Source: Alphaproteobacteria bacterium (GTDB taxonomy: Bacteria > Myxococcota_A > UBA796 > UBA2385). Taken from it: a stretch of 38,013 nucleotides of DNA. The notes beneath the pieces are model-generated. The model searched no databases, was not told the origin of the DNA, and worked only from the letters and a program-made list of their open reading frames with translations. The position numbers and the translations under genes were made by a program. This document shows, piece by piece, positions 2,066 through 38,013 of the stretch. Positions within the stretch are counted from its first letter, which is position 1, and each line of letters begins with the position of its first letter. The DNA lies in contig JBEIQK010000002.1 of NCBI GenBank assembly GCA_040376505.1, positions 1 to 38,013 of the forward strand. The letters run 5' to 3'.

Positions 2066-2111
2066 CTCGCAGGGTGCGGGGGCCTAACCTGCCGAATAGG
2101 GGGGCCCCCCG

Positions 2112-6023: not shown

Positions 6024-6824
6024 ATGCTTCGCCGACTCCTGCGCGCCCTGACGCGCCCTCCTGCGCCGCCGCCTGCGCCCGCGGCCCCGCCGCCGGCTGC
6101 GCCCAAGGCCGTGGTCTCCGGCTGGCGCCTCGCCGATGAGGGCCTCGCCACCGTGGTCGACACCGACTTCGACGTGGACTTCGCCGCCGGCGGCGGGCTT
6201 GTGAGCCCAGCGCCCGGACTCTGGACCGGGCGGGTGCTGGGCGAGGTCTGGTGCCGCCGCCTGCGCCGAGAGGTCGAGCGCTGGGAGGCGGCGCGCCGCC
6301 GGGGCGAGGTGCGGCTGGAGCCGCCCAATTCCATGCACCAGTACGGCATCCCCTTGGAGGCCTTGGGCCTTGGCGAGCTCGGCTACGCCCTCTTCGCCGG
6401 CGAGCTGTGGGCCCGCGCCCTGCGGCTGCCTGGCGTGAGCGGCCCGCTCCACTCCGTCACCGGCTTTGTGGTGCGCTACGGCCACGAGGGAGACGACGCC
6501 CTGGCCCAGCATGTCGACGACGCCGACGCCACGCTCTCGCTCTGCCTCGACGATGCGTGCCAGGGCAGCGAGCTCGTGATGGAGGGGCTGCGCTGCGGCC
6601 TGCACCTCGACCACCCCCTCGGGCCGGGAGAGGGCTTCACCTACACCCACCGCGCCGGCTACGCCCTGCTGCACCCCGGCAAGCACCGGCACCGGGTGCT
6701 GCCGATCCGCCAGGGGAGCCGCTTGTCGCTGATCCTTTGGGCCCGGGGCCCCGACTCGCGGGCCCGCTTTGAGGCCGAGGCGGAGGCGGGGCGCTGCCCG
6801 CCCTGGTGCGGCGCCCGCCGATGA
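6024..6824 (+). CDS. 2OG-Fe(II) oxygenase, OGFOD2/ICU11-like
   Basis: PNSMHQYG, GFVVRY, HVDD (HxD), TLSLCL, GLRC, LHPGKHRH (distal His), GSRLSLILWAR (2OG-binding Arg). Confidence 0.8.
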   Translation: MLRRLLRALTRPPAPPPAPAAPPPAAPKAVVSGWRLADEGLATVVDTDFDVDFAAGGGLVSPAPGLWTGRVLGEVWCRRLRREVERWEAARRRGEVRLEPPNSMHQYGIPLEALGLGELGYALFAGELWARALRLPGVSGPLHSVTGFVVRYGHEGDDALAQHVDDADATLSLCLDDACQGSELVMEGLRCGLHLDHPLGPGEGFTYTHRAGYALLHPGKHRHRVLPIRQGSRLSLILWARGPDSRARFEAEAEAGRCPPWCGARR

Positions 6825-7708
6825 TCGCCAGTGCCCTGCGCCTCGCCCGGCCGACGATGGTGCCCTGGCTTTGGGGCATCGTGGCGGTGGGCTTTGGCTG
6901 GGCCCACTGGACAGAGTCCCGCGATCTGCTGCGCGGGCTCGACTTCCTCGGCCTGCTGATCGCCTGGGTGGCGGTGCACGCGGGCACCATGTGGTGGAAC
7001 GCCCTGCTCGATCAGGACGAAGGCGAGGTGCTCTTTGGCGAGCGGGCCGCGGTTCCGCCGGGGCTGCAGCGCCTCGCGGGCGGGGCGCTGGGCCTGGGCG
7101 CGGGGCTCGGCCTGCTGATCGATCGGGGGTCCGGGGCCTGCCTCGTCGGGGCGGCGGCCCTGGCCGTGCTCTACAGCCACCCCCGGGTGGCGGCCAAGGG
7201 GCACCCCATCGGCGGGCCGCTGGTCAACCTGCTCGGCTACGGCCTGCTGGCGCCGGCCTCGGGCTACCTGCTGATCCCCCAGGCCTGGGAGGCGCGCACC
7301 GGCGGCATGGCGGCCCTGCTGGCGCTGGGCATGTTGGGTCTGTACTTCCTCGCCCAGTCCTTTCAGCGCGAGGAGGACGCCGCCCGGGGCTACCGCACCC
7401 TCGTGGTGACCCATGGGCCGGCCGCCTGCGTATTGGCCGCCCGCGCCTGTATTCTGGGGGCGGGCCTCGTCTATGGGCTGCTGGCCCTGGGTGGAGAGGT
7501 GCCGGCCCTCACGGCGCTGCCGCTGCTCGCGGTGCCGCTGATCGCCGCGCGGATGGCCCCCACCGCCCGCGCCACCCGCGACACCCTCTTCTGGATGGGG
7601 GCCTGCCTGGGCCTGACCCTGGTGCTGGCCTCGATCGACCACCTCGCCTGCCTGCTCCGCGGGCTGCCCGGGGCCGGGCTTTGTGTGCGGGTGCGCCTCC
7701 CGCCCTAG
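6821..7708 (+). CDS. UbiA prenyltransferase family membrane protein
   Basis: ATG overlaps the upstream TGA (ATGA). LARP, WWNALLDQDEG (NxxxD), LYSHPRVAAKG, QREEDAARGYRTL motifs; multiple TM helices. Confidence 0.75.
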   Translation: MIASALRLARPTMVPWLWGIVAVGFGWAHWTESRDLLRGLDFLGLLIAWVAVHAGTMWWNALLDQDEGEVLFGERAAVPPGLQRLAGGALGLGAGLGLLIDRGSGACLVGAAALAVLYSHPRVAAKGHPIGGPLVNLLGYGLLAPASGYLLIPQAWEARTGGMAALLALGMLGLYFLAQSFQREEDAARGYRTLVVTHGPAACVLAARACILGAGLVYGLLALGGEVPALTALPLLAVPLIAARMAPTARATRDTLFWMGACLGLTLVLASIDHLACLLRGLPGAGLCVRVRLPP

Positions 7709-7744
7709 CGCGGCCGGATAGGGGAGGACATTCTGGAGGCCTCT

Positions 7745-9988
7745 GTGAAGCGCTATCTATGTGTTTTGTTGTTGATCTCTTGTATACAGAAGTCTGGAGA
7801 CGCCGATGGCGACGGCATCCTGGACCATGCGGACTGCAAAAGTGAAGACCCGGACATCGCTCCAGGGGTGCCTGAGCTCTGCGACGGCATCGATCAGGAC
7901 TGCGACGGCCTGATCGACGAGGACGCCACCGACGCCACGCTGTGGTTCCTGGACGCCGACGGCGATGGCGAGGGCGATCCCGCGGCGCGCGAGTGGGGCT
8001 GCGAGAGCCCCGGCGGGCTCTTTGTCGACAATGAGCGCGACTGCAACGATCAAGACGCCTCGCTGACCAGCGCCACCCTCTGGTTCTACGACGGCGACGG
8101 CGACGGCGTGGGCGACGCCGAAGACGCCGGCACGGCCGGCTGCCTGCAGCCCTCGGCAGACCATGTGCGGCTGAGCGGGGACTGCGACGACCGCCTGCCC
8201 GAGATCAGCCCCTTGGAGACGGAGACCTGCAATCACCTCGACGATGACTGCGACGGGGAGGCCGACAACGGCGTGTCCTCCACCTGGTATGTCGACGTGG
8301 ACGGCGACGGCGCGGCCGGCGCGTCGGTGACGGGCTGCGCCGACGAGCGGCCAAGCGGCTACCAGTTGGAGAGCGCCGACTGCGACGAGACCGATGAGGA
8401 CGTCTTTTGGGGCGCCCCTGGCGAGTGCAACAACGGCCTGGATGAGGCCTGCGGCGCTGAGGTTTCGCAGTGCTGGACCACCACCCTCGACGGCGACCTG
8501 CACCTCGTCGGCGGGCAGGACGATCTGGTGCTCGGCGCCTCGATGACCACCCTGCCAGACCTCGACGGCGACGGCCAGCGCGAGCTGCTCATCGGCGCCA
8601 CCGGTCTCAATTCCGACGCCGCACGAAACGCGGTGGGCGAGGGCGGGGCCTTCCTGGTCTTGGGCGGCCGGCGCGGCGAGGTCGATGTCTGGAGCGACCC
8701 GGCGGTGCGGCGCATCTACGGCGCCGCCTTTGAAGACGGGGCCGGCGATGAGGTGGTGGTGGGCGACTTCGACCACGACGGCCTCGACGACATCGTGATC
8801 ACCGCCGACTTCCATGATCCGCTCAACCTCACAACCATCACCAACACCACCGACACCATCTCCAACGCCGGCGGCGCCTGGCTGATCAGCGGCGAGACCC
8901 TGGCCAGCACCACCGGTGACCTCCGGGTGAGCGAGGTGGCCAGCCTCTCGATCCTCGGCGCCTACCAGGGCGACTGGCTCGGGGAAGGCGCAGCCAACGG
9001 CGGCGACCTCAATGGCGACGGCATCGCCGACCTGCTGATCGGCGCCAACGGCGACTTTCTCGACTCGGGCAGCAGCGATGTGCCCGATGATGCCAACGCT
9101 GGCGCAGTCTTTGTGGTCTTCGGTCGAGAGGGCGGCTGGGATGCTTCGGTGTACTCCACCGACCTCGCCAGCGGTGGCTGGGCCTTGGAGGTCAACGGCC
9201 CCCTCGGCGACGGCCTGCGCATCGGCGACAAGCTGCTGGGGCAGGTCGATCTCTCCAACGATGGCATCGACGACCTGGTGGTGAGCGCCTGGCACGATGA
9301 AGGCGAGCGCGGCGGCGCCTATGTCCTGAGCGAGTTCCCGTCGGGCGGGCCCTCCGCCATGCCCTGCGCGCTGGAGGTGGGGGTCTGCGCCAACGGGCCC
9401 GAGGTGACCTTCATCGACGGGGTCTCCACCGACAGCATGAGCGCCTACTCCATGGCCGGCGCGCCCAACCTGCTCGGCGATGGGTACGACGGCGTGGTCT
9501 TCACGGCGCCGGGCGACGCGTCGCAGGGGGTGCGACGGGGCGGGGCGGTCTTTTTGATGAGCGGCGACACCTTCGAGGCTGGCGTGGCGCTCTCCCTGCG
9601 CGAGAGCGGGCTGCTCACCATCTACGGCGATGAGGCCGAGCAGTGGTTCGGCAACGCCGTGGCGGCCGGCGCCGATGTCGACGGAGACGGCGAGGGCGAC
9701 CTGGTCATCTCGGCGCGGGCCAGCGCCCTCGACTATGAGGGCACCACCTGGTTCTTCCGCGGTCCCTTTGTGGCCGGCGGCACCCTGCGCTCGAGCGAGG
9801 CCGACGCCATCATCCGGGGCACCGACATCTCCAGCGGGGCCGGCGAGCAGCTCGAGCTGATCCCCCACCCCGACGGGGCGCTGGTGGCGGTGGGGGCGCC
9901 GGGCTACGACGTTCCCACCGGCGATGACACCAGCGTCTATGTCGATGGCGGCGGCGTCTTCGTCTTTTACTCGGGCTTCGGGCTGTAG
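7745..9988 (+). CDS. Lipoprotein with N-terminal MopE-like Cys/Asp repeats and C-terminal FG-GAP (integrin-alpha-like) beta-propeller
   Basis: GTG start after GGAGG, lipobox LISC, DCDD...CDGxDxDCDG repeats, then [61 protein letters not shown]. Confidence 0.85.
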
Positions 9989-11136
9989 GTCATCTGGATG
10001 CCGGCCGCGGCGGCGACGATGCCGAAGCCGCCGATCACGCCGCCGGCCACAGCCCCTGCCACCAACGGGCCATGGATGGACTGGCGGTAGTCGCGCTGGT
10101 CGATGGTCTGCTCCCAGTCGGGCTCGTAGCGAACCCGGCCGGCCTGGGTGACGCAAAAGGCCATGCTGGTGAGGCCGAGACCGGCGGCCACGAGCCCCCC
10201 GGCGGTCAGGGCGGTTCCCCGCTGCGTGCGCAGGGCGGCCGGGTCGACCGGGGCCGGCGGCAGGCGGGTCCAGGCGCCGTCGTAGCGCCAGGTGGCGTCG
10301 GCGGTGCGCAGCCAGGCGGTCTGCTTGGGGTGGCCGAGGTCGAGCAGGGTGGAGACCAGCGGATCGTTGGGGAAGGCCTGGATCGGCAGGGCGGCCAGCG
10401 AGCGCGGATCGACGAGGTGGGCCGGCAGGGCGGCGTCGACGCGCACCGTCCAGGTGAGGGTGGGGGTGCCTGGCACCTGAACGAGGTGGGTGCCGGCCGA
10501 GAGGCGGATCACGCCGGCCTCGGGGCTGCGGGCCTGGCCGTCGATCCACAGGGTCTGCACGGCGCCGAGCACGCGCAGCTCGGCCACCTCGCGGAGGGTC
10601 TCGCGGGAGGCCTCGAAGAGGGGCTGGCCCTCGGGGGGGTAGTTGGTGTCCCAGACGAGGCCGGGCTTGTACTGCACCGCCTGGGCGAAGGACTGGCGCG
10701 CGGCCTCGGTGCCCTCGACCTTCACGGAGATGATGCCGCGGAGGTAGTGGAGTTGGGCGATGGTGCTGGCCTCGGCCGGCTCTCCCAGGCAGGGCACCGA
10801 GCTGAGGGCGCGCTCCAGCGTCTGGATGGCCAGGGGCCAGCGCTGGCCCTTCACCGCGGCCTCGCCGTCGGAGAGGGCCTTGAGCAGCTCGGAGTTGGAG
10901 GTGGGCCGGCTGCAGGAGGGGTCGATGCGCCCATCGCCGAAGAGGATGGCCTGGCCGTCGCTGGCCCGTTGCAGGAAGGCGGCGATCGGGGTGGGGTCGA
11001 GGCTCCACGGGGGGACGGCCGCATCGGCGGCGACGGCCTTGACCGCGGCGCTGGGGTCTCCTTCGTGCAGGAGCAGCTCATCGGCGTGGGCGAAAGCGGG
11101 AAACAGCAAGACAAACAGGGTCGAGTACAGGCTCAC
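9967..11136 (-). CDS. Secreted/membrane protein with TPR-like helices, PEGA-like domain and C-terminal hydrophobic segments
   Basis: Likely GTG start at 11136 with GGAGA RBS, signal peptide ending AFAHA, LHYLRG...ARQSFAQA helices, LWIDG...[10 protein letters not shown], two Gly-rich hydrophobic stretches. The 5' extension in the ORF track is antisense to the kinase. Confidence 0.65.
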
Positions 11137-11196
11137 AGTGTCTCCAACCAAAGTCGATGCTGCGCGGAGCGGAGGCCCCACGATAGGGGTGTAGGG

Positions 11197-12615
11197 ATGC
11201 TGGCGACCGGAACGATCATTGCGGGCAAATACGAGGTGGAATCCACCCTCGGCAGCGGGGGTATGGCCACCGTCTATCTCGTTCGCCACCTCACGCTGGA
11301 GGCGCGCTTCGCGCTTAAGGTGTCGCATGCGCACTCGCCGGGCCTGCTGCAGCGCTTTGTGCTCGAAGGGCAGCTGCAGGCGCGGCTGCACCACCCCGGC
11401 GTGGTCAAGGTGCAAGACATCATCGATGTCCACGGCGCCCCCGGTCTGATCATGGAGTATGTAGCGGGCGGAAACCTCGACACCTGGTGTCAGGTGCGGC
11501 CGCTGCACGAGCTCGACGAGGTCCGGCGGCTGTACCGGGCCCTGGTGGAGGCCGTGGGGGCCGCTCACTCCGCCGAGATCGTCCACCGCGATCTCAAGCC
11601 GGCCAACGTGCTCCTCACCGGTGATCCGGCGGCGCCGATGCCGCGGGTCACCGACTTTGGCATCGCCAAGGTGCTCGACAGCGCCAGCAGCCCCACCCGC
11701 AGCAACATGGGCTTTGGCACGGTGGCCTACATGGCCCCCGAGCAGGCCTATGACGCGCGCTCGGTCGACAAGCGGGCCGACATCTTCGCGCTGGGCTGCA
11801 TCCTCTACGAGATGATCACCGGCGAGCGGGCCTACCCCGAGTACAACCCGGCGATGGATGAGGAGACGCGCCGGCGCGACATGGACCCGCGTAAGGTGCG
11901 GCCCGAGACCCCCGAGGCCTTGGCCCAGGCGGTGGTTCGCTGCCTGCGCTTTCGGCGCGAAGAGCGGCCCCAGTCCTGCAAGGAGCTCCTCGTTCTGCTC
12001 GATGGGGGCAGCACCCCCGGCGGGGTGGGCGCTACACCGGTTCCCATCACCCGGCCCGACGCTGGGCATACGCTGCCCATCGATCTCCTCGGGGAGCCCC
12101 TGCCGCCGGTCGATGCGGGCAACCCCTGGCTGCTGCCGGGGATCCTGGTGGGCATCACGGCCCTGCTCGCGGTGGGCCTGGGCTTTCGCCTTCAGGAGCC
12201 CGAGCCGCCGCCCGAGTCCCATCCCTTGGGGGCTCCGGTGGTGGTGAATAACGATCCGCCGAACGAGGGGTCGACGGGGGCGGGCGAGGCCAATGGGTCA
12301 ACGCCTGCGGAGCCGCTGATTGACTCTCCCCCGCCGCCTGTCGGCCCAAGGCCAAAGAAGGCGGAGAACCCCAAGCCGCCCCCGCCGGAAGAACCGCCTG
12401 GAGAGGTGCTGATCAGCAGCAAGCCGATGAGCCCCTTCACCTTCCGTGGCAAGAGCTACAAGGCGGACTTTCACCGCCTCTCGGCGCCGCCGGGCGACCA
12501 CCTCATCACCTATGTGGGCCCCGACGGCGTGAGCAAGTCGATCTCAGTTGAGGTGAAGTCCGGCAAAGAGGTGGGCGCCTGCTGGGGCTTCAACATCAAC
12601 GACCGATGCCTATGA
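11197..12615 (+). CDS. Membrane-anchored Ser/Thr protein kinase (Hanks type)
   Basis: Start MLATGTII at 11197; LGSGGMATVY, ALK, HRDLKPAN, DFG, YMAPE, DIFALG; TM WLLPGILVGITALLAVGLGF; Pro-rich linker; small C-terminal domain ending CWGFNINDRCL. Confidence 0.93.
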   Translation: MLATGTIIAGKYEVESTLGSGGMATVYLVRHLTLEARFALKVSHAHSPGLLQRFVLEGQLQARLHHPGVVKVQDIIDVHGAPGLIMEYVAGGNLDTWCQVRPLHELDEVRRLYRALVEAVGAAHSAEIVHRDLKPANVLLTGDPAAPMPRVTDFGIAKVLDSASSPTRSNMGFGTVAYMAPEQAYDARSVDKRADIFALGCILYEMITGERAYPEYNPAMDEETRRRDMDPRKVRPETPEALAQAVVRCLRFRREERPQSCKELLVLLDGGSTPGGVGATPVPITRPDAGHTLPIDLLGEPLPPVDAGNPWLLPGILVGITALLAVGLGFRLQEPEPPPESHPLGAPVVVNNDPPNEGSTGAGEANGSTPAEPLIDSPPPPVGPRPKKAENPKPPPPEEPPGEVLISSKPMSPFTFRGKSYKADFHRLSAPPGDHLITYVGPDGVSKSISVEVKSGKEVGACWGFNINDRCL

Positions 12616-14121
12616 GCCCGGCCGCCGCAGGTCGAACTCACGAATCAGGTTGTAGAGGTGGCTGCGGGTGAGGTCGAGGCGGCGGGCCGCCACCGACACA
12701 TTCCAGTCGACGGCGGCCAGGGTCTCGCCGACGAGGCGGGCCTGAAACTGGCGGGTGGCGGCCTGAAACGACAGCTCCGGCGGCGGGCTGGTGGGGCTCT
12801 GGCCCCGCTGGGGGGCCTCGGGAAAGACGTGGCGGGTCTCCAGCAGGCCGCCGCCGTCGAGTTGGGCGCGCACCACGGCGGCCTCGATGGCGTGGCCCAG
12901 TTCGCGCACATTGCCCGGCCAGGAGGCGGCCTGCAGGGCGGCGGCGCAGGCGGCGGAGAGGCGCAGGGGCTGGAGCTGGTGCTGCTTGCAGGTCTCCTCG
13001 ACAAACCAGGTGGCCAGCACCGGCACGTCCTCGGCCCGCTCGGCCAGGGCGGGCATCTTCAGGGGCACCACATGCAGGCGGTAGTAGAGGTCCTCGCGAA
13101 AGCGCTTCTCGGCCACGGCCTTCTTGAGGTCGACGCTGGTGGCGGCGATGATGCGCACATCGGCGGTGGCCTGCCGGGTGGAGCCCAGCGCGTAGTAGGT
13201 CTTCGACTGCAAGAGCTGCAGCAGCTTGGCCTGGGCGGAGAGGGGCAACTCGGCGATCTCATCGAGGAAGAGCACGCCGCCGTCGGCGGCCTCGACCTTG
13301 CCGGTCATCTTGCGGCTGGCGGCCGAGTGTGCGCCCTGGGCGGCGCCGAAGAGCTCGCTCTCAACGAGGTTCTCGGGCAGGGTGGCGCAGTTGAGCTCGA
13401 TGAAGGGCCGGGGGTGGCGGCGGCTGTTGAGCCAGATCAGGCGGGCCACGGCGGTCTTGCCGGTGCCGGAGGGGCCGGTGATCAGCACCGTCATGTCGAG
13501 GGGGGAGACCAGGGCGACCTGGCGCAGCACGTCGGCCATCGCCCGGCTGCGGCCGATGAAGTTGGGGGTCTTGATCTGGGTGCGCACCGCGACGGTGTGG
13601 TCGAGGGCGGCCTCGGCCCGTGCCTGGAGCTGCAGACGCTCGGCCAGGGCGACGAGGTGCCGAGCGAAGAGCTCGACCAGGGCTTGATCTTCATCGGCGA
13701 AGGGGCCGTTTGGCTGGCGGCCTTGCAGGTAGACCACCCCCAGCTTGCCGATCGGCGCGCAGAGCACGGCCTCGATGCGCAGGGCCTGCACGCTCTGGTG
13801 GCTGGCGAAGCGGGGGTCGTTCAAGGCGGAGACGCTGCGCAGGGTGCGCCCGCCGCTGATGGCGTCGGCGACGATGCCGCGGGAGATGCCGGCCCGCACA
13901 TTGACCAGCTCGGCCTCGTCAAAGCCCTGGGCGAGGCCGCAGGGCTCGGCGGCGCCCTCGCGCTCCAGCTCGACATAGGCCTTGCGGGCGCGGGTGGCGG
14001 CCACCACCAGCGAGAGGGCCTCGCGCAGCAGGGCGGGGGGATCGGCCACCTCGGCGAGCTGGATCAAGCGGAGGTAGAAGTCCCGCTCGGCGCGGAGGCG
14101 GTCGGGCTCGGCGGTGTGCAT
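12610..14121 (-). CDS. GAF-AAA+-HTH (NtrC/Fis-family) enhancer-binding-type regulator with degenerate GAFTGA loop
   Basis: GAF (VLCAPI...VVYLQ), Walker A GPSGTGKT, ESELFG, Walker B LFLDEI, FREDLYYRL, WPGNVREL, C-terminal HTH (WNVSVAARRLDLTRSHLY). Confidence 0.9.
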   Translation of the reverse strand: MHTAEPDRLRAERDFYLRLIQLAEVADPPALLREALSLVVAATRARKAYVELEREGAAEPCGLAQGFDEAELVNVRAGISRGIVADAISGGRTLRSVSALNDPRFASHQSVQALRIEAVLCAPIGKLGVVYLQGRQPNGPFADEDQALVELFARHLVALAERLQLQARAEAALDHTVAVRTQIKTPNFIGRSRAMADVLRQVALVSPLDMTVLITGPSGTGKTAVARLIWLNSRRHPRPFIELNCATLPENLVESELFGAAQGAHSAASRKMTGKVEAADGGVLFLDEIAELPLSAQAKLLQLLQSKTYYALGSTRQATADVRIIAATSVDLKKAVAEKRFREDLYYRLHVVPLKMPALAERAEDVPVLATWFVEETCKQHQLQPLRLSAACAAALQAASWPGNVRELGHAIEAAVVRAQLDGGGLLETRHVFPEAPQRGQSPTSPPPELSFQAATRQFQARLVGETLAAVDWNVSVAARRLDLTRSHLYNLIREFDLRRPGS

Positions 14122-14256
14122 GCAGGCTCCCAGGGCCGGTCGGTCGTAACCGGTTGGGGCTGCCTGCTGACGTCGGCTGGAGCGACGGAGGCCTCGCTTT
14201 GTTTGGGCCTCACACCCTGCGATGACGGCGGCCCGATGGGCATCAGCGGCGAGGGG

Positions 14257-14356
14257 TGGCGGAAGGTGATGGGAGTCGAACCCACCGAGCGGCGCCTCTC
14301 AGCGCGCCCCACCGGCTTTGAAGGCCGGGGCCGGCACCAGCCTGGCAACACCCTCC
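14257..14356 (-). tRNA. selC: tRNA-Sec (anticodon UCA)
   Basis: Reverse complement folds as: 8-bp acceptor GGAGGGTG/CACCTTCC, D arm with TGGT loop, anticodon arm CCGGC-CTTCAAA-GCCGG, long variable arm, T arm GTGGG-TTCGACT-CCCAT, discriminator G and encoded CCA; 100 nt. Confidence 0.95.
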
Positions 14357-21424: not shown

Positions 21425-21436
21425 GGCACCGTATAG

Positions 21437-21449
21437 CCCCCCCCCCCCC
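21437..21449. repeat. Poly-C homopolymer (C13)
   Basis: Seen directly: TATAG-CCCCCCCCCCCCC-TCTGGAGGG. Confidence 0.9.
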
Positions 21450-21461
21450 TCTGGAGGGATC

Positions 21462-21644
21462 GTGACCCACCTGGAGATCTACCGGTACCTGCTGGCCCCC
21501 GAGCGGCGGTGGTCCCTGCTGCCCGAGCTGGAGGCCCAGGGCTACCAAGAGGTGCTCGGCTACATGCCGGTCTGTCCTGCCAGCGGTGTCCGCCGAGGTC
21601 CAGCGTTCAGCTCGCCGCCTCCAGCTCTTCGTGCGTTAGCGTGA
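21462..21644 (+). pseudogene. Possible truncated gene remnant
   Basis: GGAGGG RBS and GTG start; about 35 codons with host-like GC3, then codon quality falls as it runs into the convergent gene. Confidence 0.3.
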
Positions 21645-21858
21645 TGATCGACACGATACGCCGGCGATCTTCGATGGGCAGCTTGGAGTCCAACCAGGCC
21701 CAGAGCATCTCCTGGCGGGCCATCTGCTCCATGCCGGCGAAGGATCCGCTCAGAAAGTAGCCGCCCACACGCCCCGAGGCGGTTGTGTCGAGCTCAACGG
21801 CGGGCCGGTCAAAGGGGCTCTGAAGCAGGGTCTCGGTCAGCTTTGCTTTGAGTTCCAT
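21607..21858 (-). CDS. Small BolA-like protein
   Basis: 83 aa; GGAGAG RBS; SGSFAGMEQMARQEMLWAWL...IITLTHEE fits the BolA pattern S-x2-F-x-G-x5-R...TPxE. Confidence 0.55.
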   Translation of the reverse strand: MELKAKLTETLLQSPFDRPAVELDTTASGRVGGYFLSGSFAGMEQMARQEMLWAWLDSKLPIEDRRRIVSIITLTHEELEAAS

Positions 21859-22021
21859 CGCCTCTCTCCGCGGGTAACGACATCGGTTGCTGATTCGTAC
21901 ACAAGAGTCGACACCCTGACCGCAGTCATCGGAGCGCGCCCTTTTGGGTTTATCCAGCTCTCGAATCGAGAGGCCACTGCCGTCAAGGCGGGGTACCCCC
22001 AGACCCAGACTGAGCCCAGCC

Positions 22022-23416
22022 TCAAGGTGCTGAGATCAGCGGCGCCGCCAGCTCGGTTGCCGCCCGCTCCAGCAGGTGCAGCAGGGGCCCTGGAGACAGA
22101 CCCAGCGCCACGATCAGCAGGATCAGTCCCCCCGCCGCCACCCGCTCGCGCGGAACCAGCTCGTGGGGGCTCATCTGCGGCGACGCCGGGCCGCCGAAGA
22201 GGGTGAACCAGGCTCGCAGCACCGCCACGGCGTTCATCGCGCTGGCCGCCACCAGCGCCAGATTGGGACCCACCGCCCGGCCCAGGGCCGCCGAGATCAG
22301 CAGATCATCGGCCACAAAGGAGAGGGTGCCCGGAAATCCCACGCTGGCGAGGCCAAAGAAGAGAAAACAGACCGCCAGGGCCGGCGCCGTGCGGTAGTGC
22401 CCCCCCGGCTGGCGCAGAGAAAGGGTGCCGGCCCGCGCTTCGAGCATCCAGACGCTCAGCCCCAGCCCCGTGAGCGCCAGCCCCGAGCTGATCCACATGA
22501 GCAGCCCGCCCACCAGCAGATCCGGCGTGGAGCCGGTGAGCCCGGCCAGAGAGAGCGCCGACTGGCTCATCGCGAGGTAGCCCAGGGCCGGCCGCACCTC
22601 GCGCTGCACGAGGCCCACCGCGGCGCCGTAGACGGCGGTGAGCAGGCTGATGCCCGAGAGCACGTACAGCTCGATCGGCAGCGCATCGGCGAGGAGCGGC
22701 ACCACAAAGCGCACCACCGCGTAGGCCCCCACCTGGGGCAGGGTGAGGAGCAGCACCCCGCCGAGCGAGCCGCGGGCGAAGACCTCGGGGAACCATGCGT
22801 GAAAGGGTGCCACACCCTTGCGCACCATCACCGCCAGCAGCAGGCTGGTGACCGCCGCCCGGGCGATCCAGGTGGCGCCCGGCGGCCCCAGGTCGGCCAG
22901 CGCCAACAGGGCAAATCCGACACAAAGCGAGAGCGCCGACAGCCCCATGTACAAAGCAAAGACCCGGGCCGTGCGGCGGGCCACCGGCCGGCTCTTCAGC
23001 TCCAGGTAGGGCGGCGCCACCGCGCCCACCCAAAGCAGGCTCAGCAGCAGGGGGTTGGCCGTCAGGAAGATCGACTGGGCCGCCGCCAAGGCCAGGGCCA
23101 TCCGCCCCATCGCCTGCGGGGTCACCAAAAAGCGCGGGTAGGCCAGCACCACCAGCAGGGCCAGCAGGGCTGCGAAGGGCACCACCACGGCGCTGAGCGC
23201 GTCGGTGTGCAGCAAGGCGGTGGGGCCCAGCAAAAAGCCATGGTCGGCCGGCCCCTCGGCCAGCACCCGCGCCGAGAGGCCGATGCTGACGAGCAGATCG
23301 AGGCCCACCACCGCGGCGGCGATGCGCCGGGCCCCCACCACCACGCTGCGGCGCAGCAGCAAGGCGGCGCCCAGTCCGGGCAGGCCGATCACCAGCAGGA
23401 GGAGGGCCAGCGTCAT
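22022..23416 (-). CDS. Proton-conducting membrane transporter (NuoM/MrpD-like), third gene of the DAB operon
   Basis: 464 aa, about 14 TM helices; DALS, RKGVAPFHAWFPE, YLAMSQ, LASVGFPGTLSFVADD; ATGA overlap with dabB. Confidence 0.85.
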   Translation of the reverse strand: MTLALLLLVIGLPGLGAALLLRRSVVVGARRIAAAVVGLDLLVSIGLSARVLAEGPADHGFLLGPTALLHTDALSAVVVPFAALLALLVVLAYPRFLVTPQAMGRMALALAAAQSIFLTANPLLLSLLWVGAVAPPYLELKSRPVARRTARVFALYMGLSALSLCVGFALLALADLGPPGATWIARAAVTSLLLAVMVRKGVAPFHAWFPEVFARGSLGGVLLLTLPQVGAYAVVRFVVPLLADALPIELYVLSGISLLTAVYGAAVGLVQREVRPALGYLAMSQSALSLAGLTGSTPDLLVGGLLMWISSGLALTGLGLSVWMLEARAGTLSLRQPGGHYRTAPALAVCFLFFGLASVGFPGTLSFVADDLLISAALGRAVGPNLALVAASAMNAVAVLRAWFTLFGGPASPQMSPHELVPRERVAAGGLILLIVALGLSPGPLLHLLERAATELAAPLISAP

Positions 23417-24756
23417 GGCTCGGCCTCGTCGCCGCGTCCCTCGCCCGGCCCCCGTCCCAGTCGACTGATCCAGCGCCGCTCGGCCCGGTCGGCGGCCTCC
23501 AACCCGCGGACGACCGGCCCCAGGAGGAAGCGCTCCAGGGCATCGTCGAGGTAGCTGCGCTCCATCGCGAAGCGGTAGAGCCAGCGCCGGGCTCCGGCCG
23601 GGAGGAGGGCCTCGTAGTGGCGCCCCGTCTCGGCGAGCAGGCCGCCCGCCCCGGTCTCCTGCTGGTGGTGGTCAGCCAGGGCCGAGGGGGCCCGCAGCAA
23701 TTGCAGCGAGCGCAAGGTGGCGTGGCCCACCACATGAAGCAGGGCGAGGAAGCGCAGCCCGAGCCCGATCTCGGCCAGGATCAGCCCCACCTGCGCCATG
23801 CTGGCGTAGGCGAGCTGGCTCTTCACATCGGTCTGGGCCCGGCCGGCCAGGGTGGCGTGCAGGGCCGTGGACAGTCCCACCCCCACCAGCAGCACCTGGG
23901 CCGCCGGCGCCGCGTCGAGCACCGGCGCGTTGCGCAGCAGCAGGTAGGCGCCGGCGTGAATCGACAGGGCTCCGTAGAAGATGGCCGAAGAGGGCGTGGG
24001 CCCCTCCATCGCCCGCGGCAGCCAGCCCGAAAACGGGAGCTGCCCCGACTTGCCCAGGGCCGCCACCACCAGCAGCAGGCCGATCAGCCCCGCCGCCCCG
24101 GGCGACAGGGTGGAGGTCTGGTGGGGCCACAGGCCCAGGTAGGCCTCGTCAAAGGCGCCGCTCCCGCTGGCCTGGTGCAGGAAGATCGCCGCGGTGAGCA
24201 GGGCCACATCGCAGATCCGGTAGGTGATGAAGGCCCGAAGCGCGCTCTTCACCGGGGCCGCCCGCTCGTGAAAGAAGCCGATGAGCAGGGCCGAAGACAG
24301 ACCGAGCAGCTCCCAGCCGGCGTAGAGCAGGCCCAGGTTGCCGCCCAGCACCACCGCCAACATCCCCAGCGAAAAGAGCAGGAGCAGGATGAAGAAGCGC
24401 GTGTAGCCCGGCTCCCGGTGGAGGTAGCGGTAGCCGAAGCTGCCGATCACCCCGCAGAGCGCCGTCACGAGGAGCGCAAAGGGCAGACTGAGCCGATCGA
24501 CCAGCAGGGTGAGGGCCAGATCATGGTGGTGCACCGAAAACAGATGCCCCAGCGGCACCACCACCGCGTCGACCCCGGTGAGCAGCATCTCCACCAGGGC
24601 CGCCGCCGCCGCGAGGAAGCTGCTCAGGAAGGCCCAGCGCACCACCCGCGCGGTGTAGACCTCACTGGCGCTCCGCCCGACCCCCCAGGGCAGCACCAGC
24701 AGCACAAAGGCCACCGCCGGGGCGGCGACCGTCCAGGTGATAAGGGCTGGGATCAC
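23413..24756 (-). CDS. dabB: DAB inorganic carbon transporter membrane subunit (NuoL/ND5-like, C-terminally short)
   Basis: GTG start at 24756 overlaps the dabA stop (GTGA). DRLS, YRYLHREPGYTRFF, GWELLG, KSGQLPFSGWLPRAMEGPTPSSA, DVKSQLAYASMAQVG, HVVGHATLR; 447 aa. Confidence 0.85.
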   Translation of the reverse strand: MIPALITWTVAAPAVAFVLLVLPWGVGRSASEVYTARVVRWAFLSSFLAAAAALVEMLLTGVDAVVVPLGHLFSVHHHDLALTLLVDRLSLPFALLVTALCGVIGSFGYRYLHREPGYTRFFILLLLFSLGMLAVVLGGNLGLLYAGWELLGLSSALLIGFFHERAAPVKSALRAFITYRICDVALLTAAIFLHQASGSGAFDEAYLGLWPHQTSTLSPGAAGLIGLLLVVAALGKSGQLPFSGWLPRAMEGPTPSSAIFYGALSIHAGAYLLLRNAPVLDAAPAAQVLLVGVGLSTALHATLAGRAQTDVKSQLAYASMAQVGLILAEIGLGLRFLALLHVVGHATLRSLQLLRAPSALADHHQQETGAGGLLAETGRHYEALLPAGARRWLYRFAMERSYLDDALERFLLGPVVRGLEAADRAERRWISRLGRGPGEGRGDEAEP

Positions 24757-27700
24757 GAACCCGCCTCGAGGGCCGCGCGAACCCGCGCCGGGGGCAGGTG
24801 GTCGCGGCGGCCGGCGTACCAGTCGATGGAGCGCTCCACCTCGGGGAGTGTGACGGCGACGGGCTCGTAGGGCACAAAGCCCGCGTCGGTGTAGCGCCAC
24901 ATCCTGGCGCTCTGGGGGTCCCAGGCCACGAGCTGCACCCAATGGTGCGTGACCAGTCGGCCGATGCTCGGGTTTTTGGCCGCCAGGGCCAGCAGCCGCT
25001 CCGGCCGGGCCTCGACGATGGTGAGCAGGCGCAGCGGCTCGTGGATCTCCACCATCTGCCAGGGCAGGCCGGTGCGCAGGTCGCTTTGATGACCGTCCAT
25101 CACGCCCAGGTAGGCGGTGATGTTGTGCGGCAGCTTGGTGCCGCAGCCATAGACCGCCGGGTCGACATGGCTGAACCAGTACTCCAGGTTGATGCCGGCC
25201 CCCACCGGCACCACGCTGGCCATCACGCGCTCCAGGATGGCGCCGTCGTCGTCCTGTTCGGGATCGTAGGAGACGAGAAAGCTGCGCCGGTCGAGAAAGA
25301 GCCCCCGGGTGCGCCAGCGGCGCCCGACGATGGCGATGGCGTTGGTGGCGTGCCCACACTCGGGTCGGGCCTGGGCGAGGTCCTCGGCGCGGGCCTCGAC
25401 GTGGCGCAGGGCCGCCGCCGGGCTCAGGTGGAGCGGGGCCGAGAGGAAGCGTCGGCAGCGTTCATGGGCGTCGAGCGTGCGGGCCTTGTGCAGCAGCTCC
25501 ATCAACTCGGCGAGCGGGGCGGCGTGGGAGGGCGGCACCACCTCTATGTCGTACAGATCGATGCGATCATCGCCGGTGTTGTGAAAGCCGCCGACAAACC
25601 AGGTGGCCTCGGGGATGTCGAGGCCGCGGGCGGCGAGGAGGGCTCGCACCGCGGGGTCATTGGCCATGTCGGCGAAGGCCCGGGCATTGGGCCCGCCCGG
25701 CGCCCCGCCGCAGGCGCCGCAGTCATAGGCCGAGCGGTGGGGATTGTTCACGCTGCCCGAGCCATGCCCCAACACGGCGACGAGGGGCGCGAATCCACGC
25801 ACCAGACTGATGTCTTCGAGGAGGCGGCCCACGATGTCGGCCATCTCTTCGACAGAGAACCCCACCCAGCGCCCGGCCTCGTCCTGGGCCTCGCCCGCGC
25901 GGCGCAGGTGCAGGCGGGTGGTCAGTCCCAGGCGGCCGATCTGGGCGGCTTTGTGTCGGGTGGCGGCGGTGAGCCCGGGAAAGAGCACCCGCATCACCAT
26001 CGGCGCCCCGGCCAGCACGCCCAGCAGGGCCGTGAGCGTGCCGCGAACCAGGGTGCGGCTGCCCACCGCCACGCTGCGATCGAGCAGGCCGATGCCCCGG
26101 CGCGCGAGGTCTTGGGTGGCGGCGAGGCGGGCGTAGGCCGGATCGACCTCCTCCACTACAAGATGTTGGGGCCGCAAGGCGATCGGGCAGAGGGGCGGCA
26201 CATGGGGGTCGCCCAGCGCCTTGTAGTACATCGCCACGCCAAAGAAGCCCGGCGTGCCAAAGGTCTCGTAGGCGGCGCCTTGCTCTTCGATCTGTCTGCG
26301 CAGGCTCTCGCTGCGTTCGTCGATGCAGGCGATCACCTGCAGGCGGGCCGGGGGGCGCTGGCGCCGGGGGGCGTGGGCCGCCAGCGCGTTCAAGATCTGG
26401 TTGCGGTAGCGCCGCTCAAAGGCCTTTTGAAAGATCCGCCGCCGATCGGTGTCGGTGAAGGCCTCGATCTGGGCTTGCAGCGCGGCAAGTTGAGGGGGCG
26501 CGGTTGCGAGGAGGTCGGGGGCGGAGACCCCGGCGTAGAGCAGCACCTGGAGCAGCACCCAGGCGCGCGCCAGGGTCGAGGGCGGCGGGGGGCTCACCCG
26601 GGCCTGAAGCTGACGGCGGATCCGGTCGATCGGGCCCGCCTCGCCCAGGTGCGTGCGCGCGAGGTGTTGGGCGGCGAAGCGGTCGAGGATCAGCCGCAGG
26701 GCGAGCAGATCCATCAGCGAGGCCGGCACGGCGCGCACGGGCGCGCGGTCGGGGCGGGCCTCCATCTGGGCGATCATGCCGGCGAAGCCGCGCACGGCGA
26801 CGAGGCTGGCCTCTACGCAGGGCTCCCACTCCTCTTCGGAGAGGCCCAGCGCGTCGAGCTCGGCGAGGGCGGCGCTGGTGCTGTCGCCCTCCCGCTCGGC
26901 CAGCGCGCCCAGCGCCGCGGGGAGGCCCTCCATCCAGGCCGCCGGCGGGCCGCCGGGTTGACTGTACAGGGCCAGGAAGACGCGAAACAGGCCCTCCTCG
27001 CGGTGGGGCATCGGCCAGTAGGCGAGGCCCTGATCGAGGAAGCCGGCGCAGAGCCGGTACACCAGCGGGTGGACGAGCTCGTCGGCGTCTTCGCCGGTGG
27101 CGCGCAGCAGCAGGTCGCGCAGGCGGGGTGTGGAAGGCTCGGGCTGCGGCGGCGGGGGCAGGTGGGCGACGCGCTGGACGGCGAGGGTCCACAGTGCGCG
27201 CAGCACGGCCCGCTCGGGCTCGCGGGCCAGCATCTGTTTGAGATCCACCGTTCGGGTGGAGCGCAGGGTGTGCTGCCAGGTGCGGTTGTCCTCGGCCGAC
27301 AGGCGCGGGCTGACCCCGGCGCCCAGGGCCCGGCCGGCGTCGAGCTCGGCGCCCAGCCAGCGGGTGGTGGCCGCCACGAGGTTGCCGCGGTGCTCGTCGG
27401 GGATGTCGTCGGGCAGCGCGTCGAGGGCCCGACCCTCGGTGAGCAGCCAGCGCAGAGAGGGGCCCTCCTCGCGGCGCAGGGCGTGGCGCATCAGCAGGCG
27501 GCGCAGGCTGCTCGGGCGCAGGCGGCCATCCAGCAGCGGCGGATCGGCGTCATCGGGGGCCTGCTCTTCGGCGAGCACGGCGCTGACGTCGTCTTCGCCG
27601 ATGCGGCCGCTGGCCAGGTGCTGGCGGTACACCGGCTCGGGCAGGTAGGGCCGGGCGCCAAAGGTGCGGGCGGCGTCGAGCACGGCTGCGTCGAAGGGCT

Positions 27701-27821
27701 GGTCTTCAAAGGCGTGGAGCGTGTTGTGGTGCACAAAGACCCCGATGGGGCCTTGGGCCGGCAGGTGGTGCGCGGCGTGGGCGACGATCTGAACCAGGGT
27801 CTGGCGGCGGTCCGGGCGCAT
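24753..27821 (-). CDS. dabA: DAB inorganic carbon transporter subunit DabA (DUF2309/UPF0753)
   Basis: LPAQGPIGVFVHHNTLHAFE, beta-CA-like Zn ligands CIDERSE, GHGS, NNPH and DCGACGG; RPECGHA, LDRRSFLVSYD, INLEYW, GTKLPHN, DLRTGLPWQMV, HEPLRL; 1022 aa. Confidence 0.95.
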   Translation of the reverse strand: MRPDRRQTLVQIVAHAAHHLPAQGPIGVFVHHNTLHAFEDQPFDAAVLDAARTFGARPYLPEPVYRQHLASGRIGEDDVSAVLAEEQAPDDADPPLLDGRLRPSSLRRLLMRHALRREEGPSLRWLLTEGRALDALPDDIPDEHRGNLVAATTRWLGAELDAGRALGAGVSPRLSAEDNRTWQHTLRSTRTVDLKQMLAREPERAVLRALWTLAVQRVAHLPPPPQPEPSTPRLRDLLLRATGEDADELVHPLVYRLCAGFLDQGLAYWPMPHREEGLFRVFLALYSQPGGPPAAWMEGLPAALGALAEREGDSTSAALAELDALGLSEEEWEPCVEASLVAVRGFAGMIAQMEARPDRAPVRAVPASLMDLLALRLILDRFAAQHLARTHLGEAGPIDRIRRQLQARVSPPPPSTLARAWVLLQVLLYAGVSAPDLLATAPPQLAALQAQIEAFTDTDRRRIFQKAFERRYRNQILNALAAHAPRRQRPPARLQVIACIDERSESLRRQIEEQGAAYETFGTPGFFGVAMYYKALGDPHVPPLCPIALRPQHLVVEEVDPAYARLAATQDLARRGIGLLDRSVAVGSRTLVRGTLTALLGVLAGAPMVMRVLFPGLTAATRHKAAQIGRLGLTTRLHLRRAGEAQDEAGRWVGFSVEEMADIVGRLLEDISLVRGFAPLVAVLGHGSGSVNNPHRSAYDCGACGGAPGGPNARAFADMANDPAVRALLAARGLDIPEATWFVGGFHNTGDDRIDLYDIEVVPPSHAAPLAELMELLHKARTLDAHERCRRFLSAPLHLSPAAALRHVEARAEDLAQARPECGHATNAIAIVGRRWRTRGLFLDRRSFLVSYDPEQDDDGAILERVMASVVPVGAGINLEYWFSHVDPAVYGCGTKLPHNITAYLGVMDGHQSDLRTGLPWQMVEIHEPLRLLTIVEARPERLLALAAKNPSIGRLVTHHWVQLVAWDPQSARMWRYTDAGFVPYEPVAVTLPEVERSIDWYAGRRDHLPPARVRAALEAGS

Positions 27822-35741: not shown

Positions 35742-35827
35742 CGGGGGGCTCGGGGCGAAGGCGGGGGGCTTATCCTGGCGATGGCGCTGCGCGGTCGCGC
35801 CGCCGGTGGCGCGGTTAACGAGCGCCG

Positions 35828-37556
35828 ATGACGCTCCCCCTCTTCGCGCCGCGGCTCAGCTCGCAACTCACCGAGGCCGTCGGCCAGCTCGCCGCCGCCG
35901 AGGACACCGAGCGGGGTGCTGTCTACACCCGGCCCGCGGTGGTCGACGCCCTGCTCGATCTCTGTGGCTACACCGCCGATCAGCCGCTCTGGGCGCGCCG
36001 GCTGCTCGAGCCCTCCTTTGGGGGTGGAGACTTCCTCCTGCCGGCCCTGGAGCGGCTTTGGGGGTCCTTTGTGGCCAGCGGCCGGGGCCCCCAGGAGGCG
36101 GCGCTGCTGACGCCGGCGCTCTGCGCGGTGGAGCTGCAGCCCAGCGCCTTCGCGCAGACCCAGGCGCGGGTGCGGGATCGTTTGCTCGGCTGGGGGGTGC
36201 TGCCGGCCGGCGCCGACGCGCTCTGCGCGGCCTGGCTGCGCTGTGAGGACTTTCTGCTGGCGCCGATCGAGGGCCCCTTTGATGTGGTGGTGGGCAATCC
36301 ACCCTATGTGCGCCAGGAGCGCATCCCCGGCCCCTTGCTGGAGGAGTACCGGCGGCGCTACCGAACCATCTACGATCGGGCTGATCTGTATGTGCCCTTC
36401 TATGAGCGCGGCCTCGCCTTGCTCGCCGAGGGGGGTCGGCTCGGCTTCATCTGCGCCAACCGCTGGCTCAAAAACAAATATGGGGGGCCGCTGCGCAAGG
36501 TGGCGGCGGCCTTCCACCTGGAGTGCTTTGTCGATCTCGAGGGGGCCGACGCCTTTCAGTCCGAGGTGATCGCCTACCCGGCGATCACGGTCTTCGCGCG
36601 GCGCCCGCCGGGCCTCACCCGCGTCGCCCGCAAGCCCGAGCTCAGCGCGGCCTCGCTGGGGCCCTTGGTGCGGGGCTTGCTGGGCCGCGGAGACGGCGAT
36701 CCGCGGGTGGAGACGGTGGAGCGGGCCCTGGACGGTGATGATCCCGTGCTGCTCGACGCCCCCGACCGGCTGCGGGTGCTGCGTCGGCTGGAGTCGGCCT
36801 TCCCCACCCTCGAGGCGGCGGGTGCCAAGGTGGGGATTGGCGTGGCCACCGGCGCCGACAAGGTCTTCATCGGCGCATTCGACGGGCTGCCGGTCGAAGC
36901 ATCCCGCAAGCTGCCCCTGGTGATGGCGGGTGATCTGGACGGTCTCACCCTGCGCTGGAGCGGAAAGGGGGTGATCAATCCCTTCCTCGAAGACGGTCGA
37001 CTGGCCGATCTCGACGAAATTCCCGCGCTTCGGCGCCTACCTGCGTGCCCATGAGGAGGCCGTCGCCGGCCGGCACTGCGCCCAGAAGAGCGCGGCAGGC
37101 TGGTACCGCACGATCGACCGCATCTGGCCGGCCTTGGTGGCGCGGCCGAAGCTGCTGATCCCCGACATCAAGGGCGAGCCCACCGTTGTGCTGGACGAGG
37201 GCCGCTTCTACCCGCACCACAACCTCTACTTCGTGGTCTCCGACCTCTGGAGCCTGCCGGCCCTGGCGACGGTGCTGCGCTCCTCGCTGGCCCTCTTCTT
37301 TGTGTCGTCCTATTCGGTGCGGATGGCGGGCGGTTTCCTGCGCTTTCAGGCGCAGTACCTGCGCAGGATCCGCCTGCCGGCGTGGTCCTCGTTGTCCACG
37401 GGGGCGCAGGGAGCCCTGCAGGCCGCCAGCGGTACGCTGGATCTCGAACAGATTGACGCCGCCGTGGCGCGGGCCTATGCTCTGTCCACCGAGGAGGCCG
37501 CCCTCGTCGCGGCCGCCGCCGCCGAGGCGCGGGTCTCCCGGAAGACGCCTCGATGA
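35828..37556 (+). CDS. Type II N6-adenine DNA methyltransferase (PaeR7I/TaqI-like gamma class), frameshifted at 37017-37019 in this sequence
   Basis: GAVYT, LLEPSFGGGDF (motif I), VVGNPPY (motif IV), ADLY, FICANRW, IGVATGAD; continues in the +1 frame with WYRTIDRI, KLLIPDIKG, YPHHNLY, LRFQAQYLRRIRLP. Confidence 0.9.
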
Positions 37557-38013
37557 CCGTCCAGCTCCTGCCGCCCGATTTCGATGAGATCCTCCACCAG
37601 GCCATCGCCACTTTCTGGTCTGGCCGCGGGGGCCCCGCCACCGGGGGCCAGGCGGGCGGGCGCGGCCGGGTGATCGCGGGACAGAACCTCGATGGCTTCT
37701 TCGTCCTCGTCGATGCGGTGGCTCGCCACGTCGGGGTCTCGCCCAGCGCGGTGTACACACGAAAGTCACAGGTGACCCTGCCCGGGTACTTCCGCGCCAC
37801 AAAGAATTGGGATGTTCTGGTGGTCCAGGACGGCCAGTTGCTGGCGGCCTTGGAGCTCAAGTCCCAGGTTGGCTCGCTGGGGAACAACTTCAACAATCGA
37901 GCCGAAGAGGCGCTGGGCTCGGCGACCGACTTCGCGGTGGCGCAGTCGGAGGGCGCCTTTCGCCGCACAGAGGGCAGCGCCGGGCCGCTGCTCCTCGCCG
38001 AGCCGGTGCCCGC
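37553..38013 (+). CDS. Type II restriction endonuclease, PaeR7I/XhoI family; 3' partial (absent from the ORF track)
   Basis: ATGA overlap with the MTase stop. My translation: MTVQLLPPDFDEILHQAIATFWSGR...GQNLDGF...TLPGYFRATKNWDVLVV...ALELKSQVGSLGNNFNNRAEEALGSATD; open to the window end. Confidence 0.92.
   Translation, partial: MTVQLLPPDFDEILHQAIATFWSGRGGPATGGQAGGRGRVIAGQNLDGFFVLVDAVARHVGVSPSAVYTRKSQVTLPGYFRATKNWDVLVVQDGQLLAALELKSQVGSLGNNFNNRAEEALGSATDFAVAQSEGAFRRTEGSAGPLLLAEPVP

Follow-up and report, generated by a model that had tools for sequence, protein, structure and literature searches.

Gene organisation of the locus

We analysed a stretch of 38,013 nucleotides (hereafter the window), positions 1 to 38,013 of the forward strand of contig JBEIQK010000002.1 (NCBI GenBank assembly GCA_040376505.1), which is named Alphaproteobacteria bacterium and carries the GTDB lineage Myxococcota_A; UBA796; UBA2385. 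The open reading frames (ORFs) of the minus strand at 22022-27821 showed three genes lying head to tail: dabA, dabB and a third gene, encoding a NuoM-like membrane protein. Judged by its genes, this operon would encode a variant of the membrane-energised, CO2-hydrating DAB complex, in a layout that is widespread and on record in a genome survey but has never been examined at the bench. The genes and their junctions are as follows.

24753-27821, minus strand: dabA, cytoplasmic beta-carbonic-anhydrase-like subunit, 1022 amino acids (aa) (PF10070)
23413-24756, minus strand: dabB, shortened NuoL-like membrane subunit, 447 aa, GTG start at 24756 (PF00361 and PF00662)
22022-23416, minus strand: third subunit, NuoM-like and of full size, its proton relay partly eroded, 464 aa (PF00361, TIGR01972)
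24753-24756, minus strand: start/stop overlap of dabA and dabB, 4 nucleotides, GTGA on the coding strand (read directly)
23413-23416, minus strand: start/stop overlap of dabB and the third gene, 4 nucleotides, ATGA on the coding strand (read directly)

An earlier note, made from the letters of this DNA, had reported the three genes, their overlaps, intact zinc ligands in DabA and no other nuo or mrp genes. It had proposed a DabA-L-M complex mimicking the NuoL/NuoM pair of complex I, to be checked by a survey for the third gene beside dabAB, by a DabA tree and by a predicted interface. The ORFs, the family matches and the two overlaps bear out the gene assignments, and no nuo or mrp gene was found among the 29 other ORFs scanned in the window. 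P-II, carboxysome and SulP (COG0659) genes were likewise not seen among the window ORFs scanned. The promoter scan gave no sigma-70-like site, and terminator-like hairpins were intragenic only. The approximately 600 bases at 21425-22021, between the end of the third gene and a convergent acyltransferase gene, hold no convincing ORF, and a consensus scan found no terminator-like hairpin there.

DabA carries an intact zinc site

The dabA product matched PF10070 over the whole model (E 2e-236, 787 bits for a cut-off of 25) and the solved DabA2 chain 9rd0_A with an E value of 2e-69; the sequence comparison with the PDB turned up no DAB1 chain. Its zinc site is encoded in two parts, with a hydrophobic stretch between them.

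26313-26327, minus strand: codons of C499-I-D501-E-R503, first half of the zinc site (C-x-D-x-R spacing)
25719-25766, minus strand: codons of H686 to C701, second half of the zinc site (GHGS ... DCGAC; 15 residues from H to C)
25968-26066, minus strand: hydrophobic stretch of DabA, residues 586-618 approximately, candidate membrane-inserted 'elbow/finger' hairpin (read from the sequence)

The residues C499, D501, H686 and C701 were invariant in 63/63 aligned DabA sequences, and the zinc ligands of the earlier note therefore stand. In T. albus DabA the zinc-site residues are C449, D451, R453, H694 and C709 (PMC13684180); the window protein shows the same spacing, C-x-D-x-R in the first half and 15 residues from H to C in the second. 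The stretch around residues 586-618 is a candidate for the 'elbow/finger' hairpin by its likeness to the elbow motif of T. albus (534-565).

DabB is a NuoL-like protein cut after its eleventh helix

The best NCBIfam model for DabB was NuoL, matched over positions 4-366 of 615 only. The key positions of E. coli NuoL, NuoM and NuoN were confirmed in the sequences and then mapped by hmmalign. When aligned to E. coli NuoL, the DabB residues E149 (transmembrane helix 5, TM5), D183, K236 (TM7), H267, H341 and H345 were invariant in 28/28 sequences, and R349 stood at the position of NuoL K342. The TM12 lysine is missing: nothing aligned to NuoL K399, as the chain ends after TM11. In agreement with this, the structural model of DabB (predicted local distance difference test, pLDDT, 83) presented 11 transmembrane helices followed by C-terminal helices, with no TM12-16, and superposed on E. 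coli NuoL over only about 366 columns. The tail is a feature of its own.

23461-23616, minus strand: C-terminal helices of DabB, residues 381-432, conserved non-membrane tail (model and alignment)

The model placed the tail helices, at moderate confidence, at 381-384, 387-398 and 401-432; the residues Y394, R400 and P414 were invariant. The median length of DabB was 443 aa in the triad loci (83 loci), compared to 560 aa in DAB1 loci (11) and 515 aa in two-gene loci (13). Two individual loci may be recorded here: L133 has a long DabB, of about 588 aa when counted from the profile start, and L121 a short one (422 aa), both proteins lying on long branches.

The third subunit keeps a complete NuoM fold with an eroded relay

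The third protein matched PF00361 with an E value of 1e-23, and its best NCBIfam model was NuoM TIGR01972, covered over positions 74-483 of 486. Its family comprised 151 clusters at E 1e-5 or better, with 34-80% identity among those aligned. The model (pLDDT 93, predicted template modelling score, pTM, 0.92) showed the complete 14-helix NuoM fold, including the beta-hairpin and both broken helices, and the top Foldseek match was mycobacterial NuoM with a TM-score of 0.89.

The relay residues gave a different picture. Of the elements of a functional NuoM-type relay (TM5 Glu, TM7 Lys, TM8 Lys, TM12 Glu/Lys), the TM12 acidic residue alone was kept. Glutamate was found at the TM5 position in 0/28 sequences, arginine took the place of the TM7 lysine in 28/28, the TM8 lysine position held Lys in 0/28 and Gln in 20/28, and the TM11 histidine positions were Gln or Ser, the central residues of the window protein being Q228, Q285 and S311. 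At TM12, position 371 was Asp or Glu in 28/28 (hereafter D/E371) and position 370 was Asp in 13/28. The mean fraction of the majority residue per column was 0.63 in the C-terminal half of the protein and 0.46 in the N-terminal half. Two sites recur below.

22820-22822, minus strand: codon of R199, at the TM7 lysine position of NuoL, NuoM and NuoN (aligned to E. coli NuoM K234, NuoN K217 and NuoL K229)
22304-22309, minus strand: codons of D370-D371 on TM12, at the position of NuoM E407 and NuoL K399 (alignment)

The triad is a conserved unit on its own DabA branch

A scan of one genome per species with a profile of the third gene gave 416 confirmed loci, of which we used the best 80. The order dabA-dabB-third gene was present in 68 of these 80, and in 68 of the 69 that could be assessed, the other 11 breaking off at a contig end that falls within dabB or the third gene or shortly before one of them. 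Most of these best loci are labelled Planctomycetota, with a few from proteobacterial, 'delta proteobacterium' or Nannocystaceae metagenome-assembled genomes (MAGs). The arrangement is far beyond chance, because the same gene order recurs across dozens of species.

In a sample of 301 genomes from the window's own phylum, DabA was found in 58 and the triad in 41 of those 58. For 34 of them the match positions of the two genes, compared with each other, put a third-gene match (E 1e-40 or better) on the contig and strand of dabA and 1.2-1.9 kb downstream of it; 7 more were counted from fetched loci, in which the third gene scored more weakly (60-135 bits). One genome (G187) has its dabA at a contig edge and could not be judged, and the other 16 DabA genomes had no triad. 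The loci of 9 of these 16 were seen as six dabB-dabA pairs, one dabA-dabB pair alone (G250) and two broken dabA genes, the fetched set covering neither G187 nor the remaining 7. Four genomes with no DabA gave third-gene profile matches near E 1e-41, which are presumably ordinary NuoM. A sample centred on Pirellulales showed the third-gene family at E 1e-60 or better in 9/151 genomes. Together with the gene order, these counts confirm the linkage to dabAB for which the earlier note had called a survey.

In one genome of the phylum (G050:C4:90925-100148) and in its genus-mate G187, we observed a dabA (95754-98648) flanked by strong NuoM-model matches both upstream (98721-100148) and downstream (90925-92364), which looks like a larger multi-antiporter cluster, beyond the dabB and third-gene positions.

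The DabA tree held 53 rows, from 32 triad, 2 dabA-dabB-only, 6 DAB1 and 13 two-gene loci; it is an unrooted IQ-TREE quick search with SH-aLRT support only, and its DAB1 rows are all close to Nitrobacter. A branch of length 0.93 (SH-aLRT 100) separated the triad DabA and the two dabA-dabB-only rows from the others; the DAB1 clade was supported at 100 and the two-gene type at 91. The mapping that the earlier note had suggested thus sets the triad type on a branch of its own, and the window instance is an ordinary member of that clade.

Inside the clade, the window DabA pairs with that of L002 in an otherwise Planctomycetota-labelled subclade (support 95-96), and four loci of the window's own family or order (L114, L117, L119 and L120) lie in a different DabA subclade, with third genes of 60-135 bits on the profile. 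This placement of the window DabA suggests either that the operon was transferred horizontally or that the contig was mis-binned (MAG contamination 4.4%).

Predicted docking of the third subunit on DabB

The co-fold of DabB with the third subunit reached an ipSAE of 0.82 in three runs, the best of 3 controls giving 0.00. In calibration, the mark used for this score was reached by 116/157 solved complexes and by 2/215 mismatched pairs. The runs had at least 92% of contacts in common, with a partner pLDDT of at least 82.

On DabB the predicted contacts covered residues 142-195 (TM5/TM6, including E149), 72-80 and 416-436 of the tail; on the third subunit they covered 337-411, 263-271 and 425-450, so that its own TM12-14 would pack against the TM5/TM6 face of DabB. 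Residues 371-372 of the third subunit lay in this predicted interface, beside DabB 146 and 149. The docking of TM12 of an M-like subunit against TM5 of an L-like one would correspond to the arrangement of NuoM and NuoL in complex I. The predicted interface that the earlier note had looked for is thereby obtained, subject to the likeness to complex I weighed below.

Comparison with known systems

A DAB of three subunits has recently been described. According to Phillips et al. (PNAS 2026; 10.64898/2026.05.01.722082, PMC13684180), DAB1 is a DabA-DabB-DabC heterotrimer in which DabC, NuoM-like but of half the size, aligns with those helices of NuoM that adjoin NuoL. DabC has hydrophobic residues at the relay positions and no water chain, is needed for function in carbonic-anhydrase-free E. 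coli and is proposed to be structural or allosteric. The H. neapolitanus genes hneap_0907, hneap_0908 and hneap_0909 are likewise given as a three-subunit DAC in PMC13144422 (Nat Commun 2026). The premise of the earlier note, that characterised DABs have a single NuoL-like subunit, has therefore to be dropped.

The triad resembles DAB1 (T. albus, H. neapolitanus) in its three subunits, its NuoL-like DabB with a conserved relay, its NuoM-related third subunit and its long DabA (1022 aa in the window protein and 1046 aa in H. neapolitanus DabA1). It differs in that the third subunit is a protein of 464 aa with a PF00361 match, whereas the DabC family measures 241-270 aa and 1 of 25 members touches PF00361. 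The triad protein keeps D/E371 and R199 where DabC is hydrophobic, as DabC also is opposite D370, and the triad DabB stops short of TM12, with a length about 115 aa below that of DAB1. The gene order is A-B-M in the triad and B-C-A in DAB1, and the DabA clades are separate. P-II and carboxysome genes lie near the Nitrobacter DAB1 locus, in contrast to the window triad. At that Nitrobacter locus (L082, Nitrobacter hamburgensis plasmid 1) the dabB-dabC-dabA-P-II module is apparently tandem-duplicated, a second dabA and an identical P-II gene lying just upstream, beside the carboxysome operon.

The DabC family was collected from a seed at the Nitrobacter hamburgensis plasmid DAB1 locus (60 relatives, 25 of them aligned). 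The DAB1 loci form a narrow sample: one came from plasmids (Nitrobacter) and 10 from a metagenome scan with a 10-row DabC alignment, all near Nitrobacter's; the other four plasmid loci fetched were two-gene DABs. The DabC profile matched residues 202-441 of the third subunit over its full length, with 91-92% probability and an E value of about 1e-6 (7e-7) across 230 columns, and 51 of the 60 third-subunit interface residues of the co-fold fall within this DabC-aligned half. The single Nitrobacter DabC sequence gave no signal with the third-subunit profile (0.2%), and the DabC profile showed no similarity to DabB (0.3%).

With DAB2, the two-subunit DAC of H. neapolitanus (PDB 9rd0; PMC13144422) and MpsAB, the triad has both core families and the zinc site in common. 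DAB2 has two genes in the order dabB-dabA and no third membrane subunit, while the triad has three genes with dabA first. The two-gene DABs carry a divergent LysR gene upstream in the 4 annotated plasmid loci, the 9 genome loci being unannotated. DabB is full-length there, with 15 transmembrane helices according to PMC13144422 and the median of 515 aa given above, compared to 447 aa in the window.

The gene order matches that of the 'clade C' ybcC operons of the COGNAT survey (Klimchuk et al. 2017, PMC5700660). That paper recognises three types of ybcC operon, in the third of which ybcC (dabA) stands upstream of a nuoL homologue with COG1008 (NuoM) or COG0659 neighbours, and speculates that more membrane subunits would move more ions. 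It is a neighbourhood listing that predates the function of DabA, and its passages on these operons examine neither the NuoM-like protein nor the short DabB. The system put forward in the earlier note as undescribed was thus on record as a layout in 2017; our searches of the literature on DabA, DabB and DUF2309, on DabC, on DAC and on DabA with NuoM yielded no characterisation of a dabA-dabB-NuoM-like arrangement.

The folds of the two membrane subunits are those of the NuoL-NuoM pair of complex I (E. coli 7z7s, 3rko) and of MrpA-MrpD. The triad differs from complex I in having no genes for redox or other nuo/mrp subunits nearby, an L-like subunit that lacks TM12-16 and the long lateral helix and has a helical tail of about 50 residues instead, and an M-like subunit with an eroded relay. 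Of the DabA-L-M complex imagined in the earlier note, the conserved unit, the NuoM fold and the predicted docking are supported, while a second working proton module is not supported, most of its relay residues being lost.

Proposed mechanism and alternatives

On balance we favour, as the probable reading, a three-subunit DAB in which the NuoM-like protein is the dedicated, DabC-like partner of DabB and not a second pump, and in which D/E371 and R199 probably act on E149 and K236 of DabB. DabA would hydrate CO2 at the buried zinc site of a three-subunit vectorial carbonic anhydrase, and DabB, cut after TM11, would carry the working proton relay. The third subunit, with its complete NuoM fold, would dock by TM12-14 on the TM5/TM6 face of DabB, the C-terminal helix of DabB also holding it, and would thus fill the role that DabC has in DAB1. 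D/E371 and the fixed TM7 arginine would probably tune, or help to complete, the DabB proton path beside E149/K236. The third subunit is unlikely to pump protons independently, its relay being eroded in the first half. What the data display directly are the gene identities, the conservation of the triad, the residue patterns and the folds; we infer the assembly, the direction of proton flow, the part played by D/E371 and R199 and the physiological role.

Several observations weigh against this proposal. The DabC profile matched an alignment of 25 genuine NuoM sequences nearly as well as it matched the third subunit (87.8%, E 3e-6, 182 columns), so that the homology of the third subunit to DabC, as judged from the profiles, would be a generic NuoM-likeness in the same half and fall short of orthology. 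A specific relation between DabC and the third-subunit family was considered and is not clearly indicated, the two matches being almost equal. The third subunits of the triad and of DAB1 may even be independent recruits, because the DabA clades are separate and the gene orders differ (A-B-M and B-C-A). The success of the co-fold may only reflect the likeness of the modelled pair to the often-solved NuoL-NuoM, rather than binding between DabB and the third subunit. Among the loci, dabB and the third gene of L014 (6957-10144) are preceded by 7.3 kb of DNA free of dabA, the sole assessable exception to the gene order, and the triad-clade DabA loci L121 (G159:C100) and L133 (G250:C21) have dabA-dabB and no third gene. 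Finally, the invariant polar residues of the third subunit (R199, H206, Q271, R275, E326, R328, E424 and D/E371) fit some ion-handling role.

A split proton path is an alternative that we regard as rather doubtful. Here TM9-13 of the third subunit, the C-terminal half that includes D/E371, would supply the part of the path, a half-channel with the TM12 lysine, that DabB has lost along with its TM12-14, and one antiporter-like module would extend across the interface: DabB would give the TM4-8 half with E149, K236 and H267, and the third subunit the TM12 acidic residue with its neighbouring half. Such a path would account for a DabB that ends after TM11 with nothing aligned to NuoL K399, for the co-occurrence of a short DabB with a full-size partner, for an acidic residue kept at 371 in 28/28 and predicted to lie at the interface beside E149, and for the better conservation of the C-terminal half (0.63 against 0.46). 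The central residues of the third subunit are, however, Gln and Ser (Q228, Q285, S311) and not Lys or His, and the geometry is a predicted one, possibly copied from complex I. The gap could instead be filled by helices of DabA, which are inserted into DabB in both solved DABs as PMC13684180 and PMC13144422 describe them, and L121 has a short DabB with no third gene.

It is improbable that, along the lines of the earlier note, the third subunit works as a second module for active ion translocation and raises or alters the ion-to-CO2 stoichiometry, in the manner of NuoL plus NuoM in complex I. The complete 14-helix fold with both broken helices and the invariant charged residues R199, E326, R328, E424 and D/E371 are what one would expect of such a module, and the same idea was voiced for multi-subunit ybcC operons in PMC5700660. 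The relay itself argues otherwise, with no TM5 glutamate or TM8 lysine in any of the 28 sequences, the TM7 lysine replaced by arginine in all of them and the TM11 histidines by Gln or Ser. Arginine is a poor proton carrier. The related DabC, moreover, shows no water chain (PMC13684180).

Very improbable, in our judgement, is a third subunit that serves as a pure structural scaffold with no electrostatic or ion role. It would be in line with the structural or allosteric function proposed for DabC in PMC13684180, with the erosion of most relay residues in the third subunit too and with its faster-evolving N-terminal half, but D/E371 and R199 are strictly kept where DabC is hydrophobic, and a scaffold role alone would hardly explain why buried charges are so strictly conserved.

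That the neighbourhood is incidental, or that the complex performs a chemistry other than CO2 hydration, such as the exergonic ion-exporting reaction first proposed for YbcC, is scarcely credible: our searches showed no assayed member of the triad clade and another reaction was proposed in PMC5700660 before the function of DabA was known, but both junctions are 4-nucleotide overlaps, the order is kept in all assessable loci except one, the zinc-site residues are invariant, and accumulation of inorganic carbon has been shown for other DabA clades.

Host genome and neighbouring genes

The host genome (88% complete) holds three further PF00361 genes on two other contigs, one of them over the NuoM TIGR01972 cut-off, and three beta-carbonic anhydrase genes; a search of this 88%-complete genome for the RuBisCO large subunit (PF00016) gave no match. 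Because the host shows no RuBisCO, the dedicated-partner complex that we favour would most likely supply bicarbonate for carboxylations in a heterotroph. Its gene content and the labels of the nearest loci point to Myxococcota as the phylum of the host; the Pirellulales-centred sample had no genome in common with the sample of the window's own phylum, which suggests that the host lies outside Planctomycetota.

Elsewhere in the window, the plus strand at 35819-38011 carries a restriction-modification cluster, with an Eco57I-type methylase domain, a TaqI-like specificity domain and, truncated by the window end, an XhoI-family endonuclease. Putative copper-binding motifs of the MopE type recur in the two proteins encoded at 1-972 and 7709-9988 (plus strand), the second also having FG-GAP repeats; near them lie a Ser/Thr kinase gene (9928-12612) and, on the minus strand at 12613-14298, a gene for a GAF-domain sigma-54 activator. 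Two genes possibly belong to the futalosine route to menaquinone: one for a radical-SAM protein whose C-terminal region is of the CofH/MqnC type (977-2083, minus strand) and one for a UbiA-family prenyltransferase (6773-7705, plus strand).

Significance

Neither of the solved DAB structures settles how CO2 hydration and proton flow are coupled, or which function the essential DabC has. The triad clade offers a natural experiment on these questions, as its DabB is cut after TM11 and is accompanied by a full-size partner in which just two buried charges are left, one of which lies at the predicted interface; a comparison of DAB1, DAB2 and the triad could show which elements of a complex-I-type relay are truly needed. 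Should the split path be true, the triad clade would be a natural 'two-piece' antiporter module and could represent an ancestral state, leading to DabC, which retains only the half that touches DabB, and then to the two-subunit DABs. The triad is the commonest form of DAB in the phylum sample and occurs also in Planctomycetota, in apparent heterotrophs, and it therefore bears on how non-autotrophs secure bicarbonate.

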